Shown one piece after another: positions 10,252-64,000 of a DNA stretch of 64,000 bases. A program made the translations under genes and the position numbers. The notes beneath the pieces are model-generated. The model had not been told where the DNA came from, did not search any database, and worked only from the letters and a program-made list of their open reading frames with translations. Source of the stretch: a virus; IMG/VR virus record IMGVR_UViG_3300024294_000597. The stretch is one strand, 5' to 3'. Numbering within the stretch: position 1 is the stretch's first letter; each line of letters starts with the position of its first letter.

Positions 10252-10327
10252 TGGTGCCGATTGTCGGATTCGAACTGACGACCTACTGATTACAAATCAG
10301 TTGCTCTACCAACTGAGCTAAATCGGC
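10252..10327 (-). tRNA. tRNA-Thr(TGT)
   Basis: GCCGATTTAGCTCAGTTGGTAGAGCAACTGATTTGTAATCAG...CACCA. Confidence 0.95.
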
Positions 10328-47573: not shown

Positions 47574-47647
47574 TGGCATCGGTGCAGGGAGTCGAACCCC
47601 GGCTTACAGTTTTGGAGACTGTCGTGCTACCGTAACACTTCACCGAT
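47574..47647 (-). tRNA. tRNA-Trp(CCA)
   Basis: ACAGTCTCCAAAACTGT anticodon arm; GGTTCGACTCC; CCA end. Confidence 0.93.
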
Positions 47648-47653
47648 AAATTT

Positions 47654-47730
47654 TGGTAGACCCCGCCGGACTTGAACCGACACTCGACCCGTTATGAGCG
47701 GGTGGCTTTAACCAATTAAGCTAGAGGTCT
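47654..47730 (-). tRNA. tRNA with CAT anticodon, probably Ile2 (lysidine)
   Basis: CCCGCTCATAACGGG arm; lacks initiator features; resembles bacterial tRNA-Ile2. Confidence 0.85.
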
Positions 47731-47737
47731 ATAATAT

Positions 47738-47815
47738 TGGCCTCCACTAGAGGACTCGAACCTCTGACCTAGTGCTTAGAAGGCACTTGCTCTAATCCAA
47801 CTGAGCTAAGTGGAG
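47738..47815 (-). tRNA. tRNA-Arg(TCT)
   Basis: AGTGCCTTCTAAGCACT arm; CCA end. Confidence 0.95.
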
Positions 47816-47823
47816 AAATTAAA

Positions 47824-47898
47824 TGGTACACCCTACGAGAATCGAACTCGTCTTTCCAGGTTGAAAACCTGGCGTCCTAACCGATAGACGAAGGGTGC
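47824..47898 (-). tRNA. tRNA-Glu(TTC)
   Basis: CCAGGTTTTCAACCTGG arm; CCA end. Confidence 0.95.
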
Positions 47899-47906
47899 GT
47901 AATGAT

Positions 47907-47993
47907 TGGTGCCTCCTCCCGGACTCGAACCGGGACGCTTTTAAAGGCGAGAGATTTTAAGTCTCTTGTGTCTACCTATTCCACCAAGGAGGC
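47907..47993 (-). tRNA. tRNA-Leu(TAA)
   Basis: AGAGACTTAAAATCTCT arm, long variable arm, CCA end. Confidence 0.95.
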
Positions 47994-59772: not shown

Positions 59773-60255
59773 TTATTTCTGAAATCGCCATCTTACAACA
59801 TCATCATAGTTTTCTTTTGGCCAATTATCATAATACCCTTGGTTCTTTAAAATTTCACTTGCATTATTTAACTTCGATAGTCTTTGCACTAATACCAATA
59901 TGCATTTACCAAAATTCATTGATGCACCATTTAATATTTCTGGATCATTGGGATGGTCTTCTAGTGCTACTATATCCTTAGACATTGCAATATCATTAAA
60001 GTCTGTTACCATGGTTGAAAGTTCTTTTGGAGTCAAATCTTCTGTTGGACAATAAACAACAACAACCTCATATTTGTCATCCCAATTATCAACGAGAGAA
60101 TCAATCAGAGGTGATATAGTATGCTTTCCTACTGAGACATAATTGATTCTCTCTTTGAGCATGGCCTGTTTCGCAAAAGGACATGGCACTTGCCCAATCT
60201 GGTCATTGTGCGTTGACACAAATTCTTCAATCCATTTTTTAATTTCTGAAATCAA
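59773..60255 (-). CDS. DUF1415-like protein
   Basis: WIEEFV...PCPFAK; HP; LVQR. Confidence 0.6.
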   Translation of the reverse strand: MISEIKKWIEEFVSTHNDQIGQVPCPFAKQAMLKERINYVSVGKHTISPLIDSLVDNWDDKYEVVVVYCPTEDLTPKELSTMVTDFNDIAMSKDIVALEDHPNDPEILNGASMNFGKCILVLVQRLSKLNNASEILKNQGYYDNWPKENYDDVVRWRFQK

Positions 60256-60662
60256 AGGTCGCCCTCTTTGCGATTTTCTGAATAGTGAACGTCAAACTCA
60301 CCACCGGGATATCGTGCTTTTAGCTTTTCTACATTCTCTGCTAAAACTTCATTAGGGTCCAAACCCAATGCACGACAACTATTAACCCAATACCACATAA
60401 TATCACCAAGTTCTCGTTTAGCGTGAAAGATAGTCTCGCTATCAAGTGGTTTACCTTGAAATATACATTTTTTAACAATCTCTGCAAACTCTCCTCCTTC
60501 TGACGCAATACCAATTGCACCTGTCATAAGCAATGCCATATTGACACCTGTTTCTTTATCAAGGTTTTTAAGTGTAGAAGTTAGTGCATCTGTATTGCCT
60601 GACTGTTCGGATGTTACCTCTTGTACAAAATCTTTGTACTTGTTCAAGTCTACTTGTTTCAT
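60252..60662 (-). CDS. mazG: MazG-like nucleotide pyrophosphohydrolase
   Basis: EGGEFAEIVKK...RELGDIMWY...NVEKLKARYP. Confidence 0.9.
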   Translation of the reverse strand: MKQVDLNKYKDFVQEVTSEQSGNTDALTSTLKNLDKETGVNMALLMTGAIGIASEGGEFAEIVKKCIFQGKPLDSETIFHAKRELGDIMWYWVNSCRALGLDPNEVLAENVEKLKARYPGGEFDVHYSENRKEGDL

Positions 60663-60700: not shown

Positions 60701-63562
60701 CTATTCAGTATCAGAAGTCAATAACAAAGTGTCCCCGCCTATAGCTGTTGTGTTAATACTTATATGCTTTTCCCATACATATGGAGTTAAATAATTAGGT
60801 CCACCTGCTTTAGGACCTGTTCCACTTAAACCTGATCCACCAAATGGCTGTGTCTCTATGACTGCTCCGATTTGGTCTCTATTTACATAAACATTTCCTA
60901 CATTCAATGTCTTTGCAATATGTTCATAAAATCTATTAACACGTGAATGAACACTCAGTGTTAATCCAAATTTACTTTTGTTTATAAAATCTAATATCTC
61001 TGGTAACTCAGACTTTTCGTAAACATACACATGCAATACTGGGCCAAAGATTTCTTCATCAAAATATTTCTTATAATCTGATACAGTATATGCACATGGT
61101 GGGACAACTAGATTTGGTAAAGTTTTTCCATTACGTGATTTCATTGCAATAAGTTCTTCTGTTTCTTCCAGTACCCCAATACGTGCTTGAATACGTGAAT
61201 ATGCCGGTCCATCGATAACCCTAGATATATCTGTATTCAAATCATCTGCATGTCCAAGTGTCATTACTTTTATCTTTTGTGCTAACATGCGAATAACTTC
61301 CGCACTATTATCTTTTTGAACAAAGAGAAATCTGGTCGCACTGCATCGTTGTCCTGCACTATCAAATGCACCATATGTAACATCTTCTACTACTTGCTCT
61401 GGTAAACATGTTGAATCTGTTATCATACAGTTTATGCCACCTGTTTCTGCGATAAACGGTATAATGGGACCATCACGTTCTGCAATTAACCTTTGAATGG
61501 CTTTAGCACTACTATGAGAGCCTGTGAACGTTACACCCGCTATACGCTCATCTTTGACAGCCATAGACGCACTCTCAATGCTAGGGTCACACATACGCAA
61601 TGCATCTACTGGAATGCCAACATAATGCATACTTGCAATCGCAACCTTGGCAATCTCAACTGTCTGTGGTGCTGGTTTTGCCAGTACTGTGTTTCCTGTA
61701 ATCAATGCGGCTACTACTGGTCCTAAAAATATCGCATAAGGGAAGTTCCATGGGGCAATCACCATCCAAACTCCACGTGGATTAACTAATGTAGTATTAT
61801 GCTCTCCTGTATACCCCAACTTAACATCTACATTGTACATTTTTTCTGCCTGTTCAACATAGTATCTTATGAAGTCGATTGTTTCTCTTACTTCTGCTAT
61901 TGCGTTAGGATATGTTTTATAAGAATATTTTACAAGTCTATTTGCCGCACTAACCATTTCTGCTTCTATACTGTCTGCACATGCTAATAGTAATTTCTTT
62001 CTGTGTTCAAATGTTGTATTGGCCCATTGGGGCTGATAGTTTTCTAAAAGTGTTATCGTATCTTTTACTGAAATTACTTCTTCATCGTGTGGAGGATGCG
62101 TTGGCGAATCCAACATGTAATCAATCATTGCAGGATCTGATAGGTCGTAACCTTTGCTATTCTTTCTTCCAGGATATAATTGATCCCAAGTTTTTAATGA
62201 TGTTTTTTTCTTTTTGACTTCTATAAATGGGTCAGTCACTTCTAAGCTATATACAAAACTAGTGTTTGCCCCATTTTCTAATAATCGTCTTATTAGGTAT
62301 GCAAGTAAATCTTTGTACTCTCCTACCGGAGCATAAATTCTAATTTTATGATTTGATGTTTTTCTTATGTAATCAAATAAACTATTTCCCATACCAAACA
62401 ATTTTTGAAATTCAAAGTCTTCATTGCAATCATTACAGTTTTTTAATGCATGAATAATTGCTGATACAGTATATGGATTATGTGTTGCAAATGCACTTTT
62501 TAAATTTTTAGATTGTACTAATTTTCTAGCACATGCTAGATAAGATATGTCCGTATTTTCTTTTCTAGTAAATACTGGGTATTCTAGTCCATCTTGTTGA
62601 GCGTATTTTATCTCAGTATCCCAATATGCACCTTTAACGAGCCGTATAACTACCCTTGTGTCGTTATGCTCTGCTATTGTCTGTAAGGTATTAATAGTCC
62701 AAAATGCACGTTTCTGATAAGCCTGTAGAGCAAATCCAACAGTATCATTTTTAAATTTATAAGTTGTTAATAATTCTTCTAATACCATAATACTAATATC
62801 TAGTCTACGTGCCTCTTCTGCATCGATAAACATAGTAGTATTGTTTTCTTCGCATACTCTAGCTATAGCGGCTAATTTAGGTACTAGTGTGTGTAAAACA
62901 TCTATGTGGTTCTTTAATTCGTATCTAGGGTGTATTGCGGACAGTTTTATAGATATAGACTCTTTTGATTTTGTTGCCGCCTCAAGATATCTTTCATAAT
63001 ATAAATTCGCATCTTCCCAATTTGTTGCGGCTTCGCCCAACATATCAAACGAATAAGTGTATCCAGGTTTTTTCTTTTTGATTGCAGTATCAATACTATT
63101 GCCCATAACAAATAATGTGCCCATATGTTTTACCATAGATTTTGTTATTTTTCTTACCGTTGGCCAGCCAAGCCTAGCAACTATGCCTTCATATGCAGAA
63201 AGTTGTTGTGCCTGCGTCAAAGCGGTGCTGGCAACTTTAGAATAAAAACTATTATTTGCTAAGTTATTCCATTGAGCGTTTGATAACTTATCTTTTATAA
63301 GTTCATCCTGCGTATCACTATCTGGTGTTCGTAAAAGAGATTCACAAAGGGTCATAAGTGCCATACCTTCAGGTGCACTCATATCATATGACTTCATAAT
63401 TTGAGTCAGGTAATGTTCTTCGGTAAGTTTAGATTGAATTTGTTTGGCATCAGTCATAATAGACTGACGGTCTTTACTAGATAAACGACACGCAATTAAT
63501 AGTTTTTCAACTATATCTAATTCGTTTTTTCTATAATAGTCATTATGTGGATAACACTTCAT
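60701..63562 (-). CDS. putA: Bifunctional proline dehydrogenase / glutamate semialdehyde dehydrogenase PutA
   Basis: SFDMLGE, IDAEE, RLVKGAYWD, FATHN, YLIRRLLENGAN; PWNFP, ETGG, SAGQRCSA, EIFGP; no RHH domain. Confidence 0.95.
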   Translation of the reverse strand: MKCYPHNDYYRKNELDIVEKLLIACRLSSKDRQSIMTDAKQIQSKLTEEHYLTQIMKSYDMSAPEGMALMTLCESLLRTPDSDTQDELIKDKLSNAQWNNLANNSFYSKVASTALTQAQQLSAYEGIVARLGWPTVRKITKSMVKHMGTLFVMGNSIDTAIKKKKPGYTYSFDMLGEAATNWEDANLYYERYLEAATKSKESISIKLSAIHPRYELKNHIDVLHTLVPKLAAIARVCEENNTTMFIDAEEARRLDISIMVLEELLTTYKFKNDTVGFALQAYQKRAFWTINTLQTIAEHNDTRVVIRLVKGAYWDTEIKYAQQDGLEYPVFTRKENTDISYLACARKLVQSKNLKSAFATHNPYTVSAIIHALKNCNDCNEDFEFQKLFGMGNSLFDYIRKTSNHKIRIYAPVGEYKDLLAYLIRRLLENGANTSFVYSLEVTDPFIEVKKKKTSLKTWDQLYPGRKNSKGYDLSDPAMIDYMLDSPTHPPHDEEVISVKDTITLLENYQPQWANTTFEHRKKLLLACADSIEAEMVSAANRLVKYSYKTYPNAIAEVRETIDFIRYYVEQAEKMYNVDVKLGYTGEHNTTLVNPRGVWMVIAPWNFPYAIFLGPVVAALITGNTVLAKPAPQTVEIAKVAIASMHYVGIPVDALRMCDPSIESASMAVKDERIAGVTFTGSHSSAKAIQRLIAERDGPIIPFIAETGGINCMITDSTCLPEQVVEDVTYGAFDSAGQRCSATRFLFVQKDNSAEVIRMLAQKIKVMTLGHADDLNTDISRVIDGPAYSRIQARIGVLEETEELIAMKSRNGKTLPNLVVPPCAYTVSDYKKYFDEEIFGPVLHVYVYEKSELPEILDFINKSKFGLTLSVHSRVNRFYEHIAKTLNVGNVYVNRDQIGAVIETQPFGGSGLSGTGPKAGGPNYLTPYVWEKHISINTTAIGGDTLLLTSDTE

Positions 63563-63595
63563 TAAGTTCTCTTTGCTCTACTTATATATGTATTT

Positions 63596-63822
63596 ATCTA
63601 CCGCAACTGTAGTTTCAGTGGATTGCACTCGAAAGTGCAACCCTATATTCTGAATAGAAGACCTCTATGTTGCTGTTGCAATGCAAATCTCGGTTCGAAC
63701 CTTTTGCACCTCACAAATAGAAGGGACTTCGCAATAATTCAATATAATCGCTTACTTGCGATATACTTTTGGGTTGCGATAGTAAACTGTAAAACAGAGA
63801 ACTACTTGTATTTCCCATACAA
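63596..63822 (-). ncRNA. Candidate ~225-nt multibranch structured RNA
   Basis: After TAAATA; closing stem CTATCGCAAC/GTTGCGGTAG, UUCG-capped hairpin, long central arm; G-U pairs favour the minus strand. Confidence 0.6.
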
Positions 63823-63861
63823 ATATTTATTATTTTAGTCGATAATCGATTTAAAACAAGC

Positions 63862-63965
63862 AAAAAAAGACCCGATAGTATTGCTACTACCGGGTCAGTT
63901 GGCGAAGAGGACTAGAGAACGGTGCAGGGAGCACCGTACTAAAGTGCAGGCTAAAAGCCTGCATA
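63862..63965 (-). ncRNA. Candidate ~100-nt three-hairpin sRNA with intrinsic terminator
   Basis: TAAATA, then TGCAGGC/GCCTGCA, ACGGTGC-TCCCT-GCACCGT, GACCCGGTAGTA/TACTATCGGGTC followed by T7. Confidence 0.65.
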
Positions 63966-64000
63966 AGTATTTACTACAATTTGTGGTTTAGTTTACTTAC

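Follow-up and report, generated by a model that had tools for sequence, protein, structure and literature searches.

A conserved four-armed RNA structure upstream of putA in uncultured marine jumbo phages, apparently the relic of a decayed protein-coding gene

The DNA immediately upstream of a viral putA gene displays a large multibranched RNA structure, which raises the question of whether it is an RNA gene in its own right or part of the gene that follows it. The locus lies on the minus strand of a 64,000-nt stretch of viral DNA (IMG/VR record IMGVR_UViG_3300024294_000597), and we refer to this whole stretch as the window. An initial annotation had favoured an independent phage noncoding RNA, acting as a 6S-like polymerase decoy, a protein sponge or an antitoxin mimic. 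PHROG matches to a tail fibre, a head decoration protein, a ClpA-like ATPase and a DNA ligase mark the window as phage DNA. On the minus strand, the order from 5' to 3' is an sRNA-like unit, a TAAATA box, an ATG, the multibranched region, a second TAAATA box and the putA ATG at 63562. The putA gene (60701–63562, minus strand) encodes a 953 aa bifunctional proline dehydrogenase/P5C dehydrogenase, with Pro_dh (1.7e-81) and Aldedh (2.6e-79) domains, while no RHH domain was detected in the window PutA. The neighbouring sRNA-like unit (63862–63960, minus strand) has its own TAAATA box (63973–63968) and an intrinsic terminator and is kept in all related loci; it is a separate transcription unit that forms the upstream border of the leader.

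The core of the element folds on the minus strand with a minimum free energy (MFE) of -66.5 kcal/mol (z -4.27), a stability reached by 0 of 200 dinucleotide shuffles; the fold of the plus strand of the same stretch is weaker (z -2.98), while the full window leader with its flanks reaches z -5.48. The closing stem P1 is formed by the 5' strand GUUUACUAUCGCAAC (63787–63773) and the 3' strand GUUGCGGUAG A UAAAU (63607–63592), and together with three arms it makes a four-way junction. The arms are P2 (63747–63762), a hairpin of AUCGC, a 6-nt loop and GCGAU; P3 (63657–63730), a long interrupted arm with the apical loop UCGA; and P4 (63614–63654), in which an internal loop separates the UUCAG/CUGAA base from a 10-bp hairpin with a UUCG cap. 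Both strands of P1 and the P3 arm are defined by the MFE fold together with covariation. All the helices first read from the letters are present in the sequence and in the MFE fold, and the 10-bp closing stem originally described is longer by GUUUA/UAAAU. The assignment to the minus (putA) strand also holds, several G-U pairs allowing the full structure on that strand only. The exception is the 5' hairpin TTGTAT/ATACAA, which is not a conserved feature: it carries a mismatch in L001-type sequences and is absent from clade B (the clades are defined below). A transcript starting 5–7 nt past the first TAAATA would cut this hairpin.

The cmscan check that had been proposed showed that no Rfam family fits the element. 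With 4227 models, no match was obtained within 63545–63830 even at E up to 10, nothing besides tRNAs was found at gathering scores over the whole window, and the relatives L019, L021 and L024 gave no match to the element either. Weak matches to SdsR, SraC and anti-hemB (E 0.14–0.78) fall on the neighbouring sRNA-like unit, not on the element. ARAGORN identified ten ordinary tRNAs elsewhere in the window and none at the element. A tRNA-like T-loop reading of GGUUCGAACC was rejected, as homologues display a covarying 3-bp stem with a UCGA loop, not a T-arm, and ARAGORN was negative.

Related viral and marine metagenome contigs were recovered by PutA-based and pattern-based scans. One contig (L016) is identical to the window, and another belongs to a complete genome of 342,607 bp, bounded by terminal repeats, in which the element is present once; a search of the window, of loci totalling ~150 kb and of four viral records, the complete genome among them, revealed no second copy. 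A phage-specific PutA clade comprises ~70 clusters at 61–100% identity, beyond which the next matches drop to 41%. Among 50,697 records of cultured phages, blastn returned no match to the region; protein searches of phage records returned for PutA only a distant match of 37% identity, probably a host-like putA, and for the ClpA protein a distant match, at 46% identity, to PA5oct-like jumbo phages. The exact core pattern had no match in 185,579 species genomes, and a PutA-based scan of species genomes, run with poor peptide patterns, yielded no confirmed match. Clade A, which contains the window, and clade B share one layout, namely the sRNA, TAAATA, the structure, TAAATA and putA, and wherever the element occurs, putA follows it directly on the same strand.

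We followed up on the suggestion that homologues be examined for covariation, and compensatory pairs were observed in every helix among 13 distinct metagenomic sequences. A covariance model built on clade A alone scores clade B at 85–94 bits and the variants L049 and L051 at 59–72 bits. In the structural alignment of the 13 sequences, which was fitted by the covariance model and is thereby biased towards structure, 98.1% of the cells are standard pairs and 38 of 59 pairs have changed on both sides (28 of 59 in a set of 10 sequences); controls in which the 3' partner was slid by 1–3 columns gave 3–8 double-change pairs and 36–49% pairing. Two observations argue against an artefact of the fitting: the P1–P4 architecture was recovered independently when clade B and L001-type sequences were folded singly, and compensations also occur within clades, two of them in P3 of clade A and a change from G-C to A-U in P4 of clade B. 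Across the homologues, 12 of the 13 P1 pairs have changed on both sides, and all five P2 pairs covary, with four different stem sequences. Compensatory pairs are found in P3 of clade A, L051 and L021, and the P4 base covaries in L021, L049 and L051. The P4 hairpin is wholly different in sequence in clades A and B, L049, L051 and L021, yet it is always paired. The element is a conserved four-armed RNA structure of uncultured marine jumbo phages. The first reading of the locus is thus sustained as regards a conserved minus-strand RNA that shows covariation and matches no Rfam model, while its stand-alone RNA gene is not supported.

The origin of the structure, which the initial annotation had missed, became visible in relatives that still carry a gene at this position. 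L024 has an intact ORF of 178 aa in the interval that separates the sRNA-like unit from putA, and the codons of this ORF for RSPFSLPGAISLEAHDCVHAIVGRGLLNQD are the P3/P4 sequence. This gene, here called gene X (~179 aa), has more than 200 homologues, bacterial ones included; it belongs to no Pfam or NCBIfam family, a weak Coq4 lead being the only one to its function, and in a bacterium it does not adjoin putA. Intact copies of gene X occur in many phage loci; they start 5 nt past a TAAATA box (TAAATA-N5-ATG), a spacing that is the same at every intact gene X start, and overlap the putA start by ATGA. A tblastn search with gene X retrieved RSPFYL*GA from the window, and from clade B LIKLSTRFRSPFSL*GAI together with H.CVHAI in another frame. 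At the nucleotide level the leaders of the window, clade B and L021 are collinear with gene X, and the alignment reveals disabling changes common to clades A and B: an in-frame TGA, a 42-nt N-terminal deletion and the loss of ~225 nt. The window relic is frameshifted as well. The lower part of P3 comes from the gene X codons RSPF.L(P)G and (V)GRGLL, and the second TAAATA box is homologous to the codons for LYKYY (TATAAATAC). Because the window element is collinear with intact gene X and shares these disabling changes with clade B, it is, on sequence evidence, the relic of a dead gene of the P0121 family, and would now serve as a putA leader. The first TAAATA box (63824–63829, minus strand) is the putative promoter box of the relic; it is followed by 5 nt and by an ATG (63818–63816) that is the old gene X start, and the block AATAAATATTTGNATGG at this box is kept in every clade A and clade B sequence. 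In the window this ATG opens a uORF of 35 codons (63711–63818, minus strand), which ends at a TGA that was formerly a Pro codon of gene X.

The relic has been under selection and has not evolved neutrally since its inactivation. Four-fold degenerate sites of putA are 51% identical between the window and clade B (L002), and 38% identical between the window and L021. In the comparison with L002, the P3-lower 5' block is identical at 24 of 25 positions (binomial P 1e-6), the block made of the P3-lower 3' strand, J3/4 and the P4 base at 31 of 36 (P 1e-5), and the P4-base 3' block at 7 of 7 (P 9e-3); P1, P2 and the P4 hairpin have an identity of 15–37%, at or below the neutral level, with pairing retained. 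We consider the relic to be non-neutral because the blocks are 86–100% identical against 51% at neutral sites and because pairing survives full sequence turnover.

Besides, the decay of gene X has happened more than once. L021, a more distant locus found by a PutA profile search, retains only P3–P4; the middle of its P3 has been remade into an 8-bp helix without mismatches, topped by a new apical hairpin, and it bears many compensatory changes. In the PutA tree L021 falls in clade C among members with an intact gene X, apart from clades A and B, and as intact gene X is widespread in clade C, the L021 relic represents a second, independent decay. In L023, L025 and L026 the sRNA-like unit is directly followed by a short putA leader and the structure is absent; the deletion in L023/L026 and that in L025 each count as an additional independent loss. 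Helices resembling P1, P3 and P4 are also predicted in the mRNA of the intact gene X of L024 (z -5.9, with 15 of 15 P3-lower pairs) and of L027 (z -4.2, with 13 of 15), and in intact gene X the P3-lower helix displays a synonymous compensatory swap of GAAG/CUUC to GUAG/CUAC. In the derived intact genes L031 and L043 the fold is lost, with z of -1.45 and -2.2 and 7–10 of the 15 P3-lower pairs. The fold therefore seems to be older than the decay of gene X. In L024 and L027 the core fold lies ~300 nt from the putA start, and consequently its original role was not the masking of putA.

We then considered how the relic relates to putA in its present position. No terminator was found between the structure and putA in any clade; within 63400–64000 the sole minus-strand terminator is that of the upstream sRNA-like unit (63896–63869), and none follows P1. 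Whole-leader folds added outer helices in 10 of 10 clade A and B sequences. The purine-rich stretch that immediately precedes the putA AUG is there paired to a pyrimidine tract on the 5' side of P1, and an outermost helix joins the conserved 5' AUGGGAA... to putA codons 2–5. In the window, the 5' strand of these helices spans 63788–63818 on the minus strand; it includes AUGGGAAAUAC, which pairs with putA codons 2–5, and GUUCUCUGUUUUAC (63802–63789), which pairs with the purine-rich ribosome-binding region. The 3' strand (63548–63581) covers that region (63581–63566), the putA AUG (63562–63560) and codons 2–5 (GUGUUAUCCA, 63557–63548), so that the ribosome-binding region and the AUG are predicted to be buried. 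The computed duplex between the window flanks has an energy of -22.6 kcal/mol, compared to -9.2 +/- 2.6 kcal/mol for shuffles, and three sequence types that differ at paired positions gave -19 to -23 kcal/mol (z -3.9 to -6.3). The outer helices are short in L051 and L049, and the outermost one is weakened in L010. The bases of the outermost helix are also constrained by the promoter/ATG context and by Tyr-Pro codons, and for this reason its conservation is not independent evidence.

The second TAAATA box (63591–63596, minus strand) lies within the 3' strand of the P1 extension and is a putative proximal promoter of putA. In L051 it stands exactly 5 nt before the putA ATG, which matches the spacing at the gene X start, and this suggests that the box is probably a real putA promoter, as had been proposed from the window, giving a leaderless putA mRNA in L051. 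L021 has no internal TAAATA box, and putA must therefore be transcribed through the element there; this locus also displays a three-part arrangement of Shine-Dalgarno (SD) mimic, anti-SD and SD downstream of the core. The independent 6S-like, sponge or antitoxin-mimic RNA gene is made less likely by the missing terminator, by flanks that pair with the putA start and by the read-through in L021.

The explanation that we favour, and which we put forward tentatively, is that the element is a structured leader that silences the translation of long putA transcripts and is bypassed by an internal promoter. The ancestral order, still seen in sister phages, would have been the sRNA-like unit, the TAAATA-N5-ATG of gene X, and then putA overlapping the gene X stop. 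In the window lineage the frame of gene X and about half of its length were lost, while the RNA fold that already lay over codons ~35–97 (P1, P3 and P4) would have been retained and P2 and compact hairpins added. The deletions would have moved the start region of the relic beside the putA start, and the two flanks, now able to pair, would close the four-way junction and hide the putA ribosome-binding region and AUG. Transcripts from the upstream TAAATA, or those reading through from further upstream, would be poorly translated for putA; those from the second TAAATA, in the P1 3' strand, would lack the masking strand and be translated. The long transcript, the activity of both promoters and the silencing of translation are inferences.

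Leaders of this kind are known from phage T4. Transcripts of the T4 genes e, soc, 49 and I-TevI that start upstream hide the Shine-Dalgarno region, the AUG or both in a helix, and a TATAAATA-type promoter between the masking strand and the start gives shorter transcripts that are translated (PMC3014915). The window resembles these genes in its succession of a predicted masking strand (63818–63788), a TAAATA box that may act as a promoter (63596–63591) and the putA start (63562). The T4 leaders are however simple local hairpins, whereas here ~210 nt separate the two strands, which a conserved four-way junction brings together, and the two promoter-like boxes of the window are alike, with no early/late distinction visible. 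The window phage is moreover an uncultured marine jumbo phage, not an established T4-like one.

Three points speak against masking as the whole explanation: the two TAAATA boxes are alike and no temporal difference is evident, the masking of a start site needs no four-way junction, and the near-invariant P3-lower and P4-base sequences are left unexplained. The P3–P4 core may have a further role, in the binding of a protein, a small molecule or an RNA. It is conceivable, if rather doubtful, that P1, P3 and P4 together constitute an autonomous functional RNA, either a metabolite- or protein-binding site or a processed stable RNA, which arose within gene X and has outlived at least two decays of that gene.

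One way in which such a core could act is as a sensor, in which P3–P4 would bind a small molecule (proline, glutamate, P5C, FAD or NAD+) or a protein and switch putA translation, with binding either stabilising or opening P1 and the outer helices. The likeness to riboswitches is evident in a metabolic-gene 5' leader with covarying helices around a conserved core and pairing at the ribosome-binding region. Near-invariant core blocks within covarying peripheral helices are the usual signature of a binding pocket, and the element is always found directly upstream of one metabolic gene, as a single copy in the complete 342.6-kb genome; the SD mimic, anti-SD and SD downstream of the core in L021 fit such a switch as well. 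We nevertheless regard a sensor as unlikely. None of the 4227 Rfam models matched, even at the relaxed threshold given above, the element is restricted to one phage lineage, and its exact pattern is present in 0 of 185,579 species genomes. The seemingly invariant bases are inherited gene X codons, and they have changed with compensation in L051 and L021. Many orthologous putA genes lack the element; the phage putA genes of L023, L025 and L026 do without it, which also weighs against a proline riboswitch, the less favoured option of the initial annotation, and loci with intact gene X can have weak structure (z -1.5 to -2.2). Finally, no classic expression platform, be it a terminator or a single anti-SD hairpin, is common to all clades.

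Again with the core in mind, the first TAAATA could drive an independent or processed stable RNA that acts in trans as a decoy, a sponge or a partner of the neighbouring sRNA, putA being expressed from the second box only. This gains from the probable reality of the second promoter and from the leaderless putA of L051; L051 has no Shine-Dalgarno-like tract, so that a long transcript could hardly express putA there. The conservation of the core also exceeds what masking needs, the fold predates the decay of gene X, and inspection of the sequence reveals a resemblance between the 5' strand of P3 and the sRNA seed. We consider such an RNA to be distinctly unlikely, since no intrinsic terminator follows P1 in any clade to give it a defined 3' end, its flanks can pair with the region where putA starts, the internal promoter box is missing from L021, and neither 6S RNA nor any other Rfam model matches. 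Predicted duplexes between the sRNA and the leader were no better than shuffles in clades A and B; pairing of the seed was thus rejected for these clades, and it is a lead only for the UUGGCGAA site of other lineages.

Another proposal retains the long transcript and gives the relic a coupling function: ribosomes starting at the relic AUG, probably in leaderless fashion, would translate the uORF, unzip the masking strand and open the putA start, replacing the stop/start overlap that once coupled gene X to putA. The relic AUG stands 5 nt past the TAAATA box in 13 of 13 distinct clade A and B leaders, as at intact gene X, and most uORF variants (17–35 codons) span both the masking strand and the P1 5' strand. 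The same conservation of the AUG is however explicable by promoter context and pairing. Besides, the length of the uORF varies among homologues (4, 11, 17, 24 or 35 codons), being reduced to 4 codons in L049 and 11 in L051, while L021 has no AUG; the uORF peptide is variable, and L010 differs from L001 by three substitutions, every one of them non-synonymous. We hold coupling by the relic to be improbable. A small protein was rejected on both strands, given a uORF of 4–35 codons without a conserved peptide on the minus strand, and 1- and 2-nt indels within clade A in the 71-aa frame of the plus strand (63623–63838). Sensing of proline codons by the uORF was likewise discarded, as there is a single Pro codon and it is missing in L010.

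The least probable reading, and one that we disfavour, is that the element is functionless debris of gene X with an accidentally stable fold: the homology with its stop codon, frameshifts and deletions, the outright loss in L023, L025 and L026 that shows the element to be dispensable, and a P3 complementarity that stems in part from the encoded amino acids (7–10 of 15 pairs in weakly structured intact genes) would suit it, but against it stand blocks 86–100% identical against 51% at neutral sites, P1, P2 and P4 helices unrelated in sequence across five lineages with 98% of cells paired, a z of -3.3 to -5.5 in every relic, and the retention of the same part in two independent decays.

The element has partial parallels in other systems. 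In mammals, exons of Xist derive from the Lnx3 pseudogene; there too a coding frame was lost while part of the sequence is still selected at the RNA level, although the phage element is a cis-leader of ~270 nt and not a long nuclear RNA, and its fold seemingly predates the loss of the frame. In the RNA phage MS2, long-distance RNA pairing couples the translation of the coat gene to that of replicase. The phage leader likewise has an upstream translated region paired with a downstream start, so that upstream ribosomes could open the start, but its upstream frame is a decayed remnant of 4–35 codons without a conserved product. 6S RNA folds into a long, irregular hairpin that has a bubble at its centre, and the likeness is limited to that of a structured phage or bacterial RNA of ~200 nt; the present element has a four-way junction, matches no 6S model and lacks a defined 3' end. 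Literature searches yielded no publication describing this RNA or any leader of a phage putA gene. The element appears to be a new structured RNA family, whose mechanism would be a variant of the T4-type masking leaders that differs in its long-range closure and in its origin.

Altogether, these data add an undescribed, covariation-supported RNA family from abundant uncultured marine jumbo phages. They also carry a caution for genome scans, in that a convincing novel noncoding RNA beside a gene can prove to be the remains of a dead ORF, an origin that only relatives still carrying the gene reveal. The most unusual aspect of the case is its evolutionary series. The related loci range from an intact gene with the fold, through a lost frame with the fold kept (twice), to the deletion of everything, and include loci where the fold is lost and the gene kept; this graded series makes the birth of a regulatory RNA from coding sequence directly testable. 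The RNA is tied to a phage-borne gene of proline catabolism, and it thereby bears on the timing or gating of auxiliary metabolism. If P1, P3 and P4 do constitute an autonomous functional RNA, this would be a documented case, from a virus of bacteria, of a protein-coding gene that became a structured RNA regulating an auxiliary metabolic gene.

The relic of gene X that now forms the structured leader of putA in the window (63563-63818, minus strand) has intact counterparts in related viral and marine metagenome loci (L024:968-1504; also L027, L031, L035, L039, L042 and L043). The intact gene X mRNA is unusually structured in two of them (L024:966-1520, z -5.9; L027:1199-1753, z -4.2), where it carries the same P1, P3 and P4 helices, the closing stem and two of the arms, as the relic, and a compensatory pair of synonymous changes falls within these helices. 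According to the predicted folds, gene X of L024 and L027 is a coding sequence overlapped by an RNA fold; its orthologues in L031 and L043 have unstructured mRNAs.

A self-contained sRNA-like unit (63862-63973) lies upstream of the leader on the same strand. It has its own TAAATA box and two hairpins with covariation across the relatives; its single-stranded UUCUCUAGUCCUCUUCGCCAACU is invariant, and U7 follows its 12-bp terminator. This unit is found in all related loci. Some relatives have no gene X-putA cassette between the unit and mazG, and the phages L036 and L041, which lack both genes, keep the unit directly upstream of mazG. Within the unit, UUCGCCAA is perfectly complementary to UUGGCGAA, a sequence retained both where gene X encodes YRFGER and in the short leaders that precede putA in L021, L023 and L026. 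Duplexes predicted between the unit and the UUGGCGAA sites gave only a marginal gain over shuffled sequences; by complementarity, these sites are possibly a target of the sRNA-like unit.

The motif TAAATA-N5-ATG occurs with fixed spacing in the window (63816-63829) and at the gene X starts of L024, L027 and L031, and it is found at putA itself in L051 (690-706), a locus with a variant of the structured leader. This fixed spacing suggests that TAAATA-type promoters give rise to leaderless mRNAs in these phages. The sRNA-like unit and tRNA genes, for example tRNA-Thr at 10327, likewise have a TAAATA box 5-15 nt upstream, and 28 of the 78 boxes are intergenic, intergenic sequence making up 16% of the window. 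Positions 1-48000 hold ten to eleven tRNA genes, all on the minus strand: single genes for Ser, Gly, Leu, Thr and Pro come first, a five-gene cluster occupies 47574-47993, and a truncated tRNA sits at the window edge.

The phage PutA (60701-63562), in which no RHH DNA-binding domain was detected, belongs to a tight and abundant marine clade of about 70 clusters that share 61-100% identity, the next relatives being at 41%. Its carriers are jumbo phages, one of them with a complete 342.6-kb genome and terminal repeats. Directly downstream of putA is a MazG-like pyrophosphohydrolase gene (60252-60662), followed by a weak match to DUF6875 (59773-60255), and in relatives this neighbourhood contains PRA-PH/MazG-type and ATE_C-domain genes.

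The gene X product, of about 179 aa, has more than 200 homologues in both phages and bacteria and no model in Pfam or NCBIfam; it displays an HDxxH...E motif, and a weak Coq4-like lead is the sole indication of function. In Kordiimonas, gene X adjoins an ABC transporter gene, not putA. In phages, gene X overlaps the start of putA (ATGA), which suggests that the two genes are translationally coupled and that gene X shares a function with proline oxidation.
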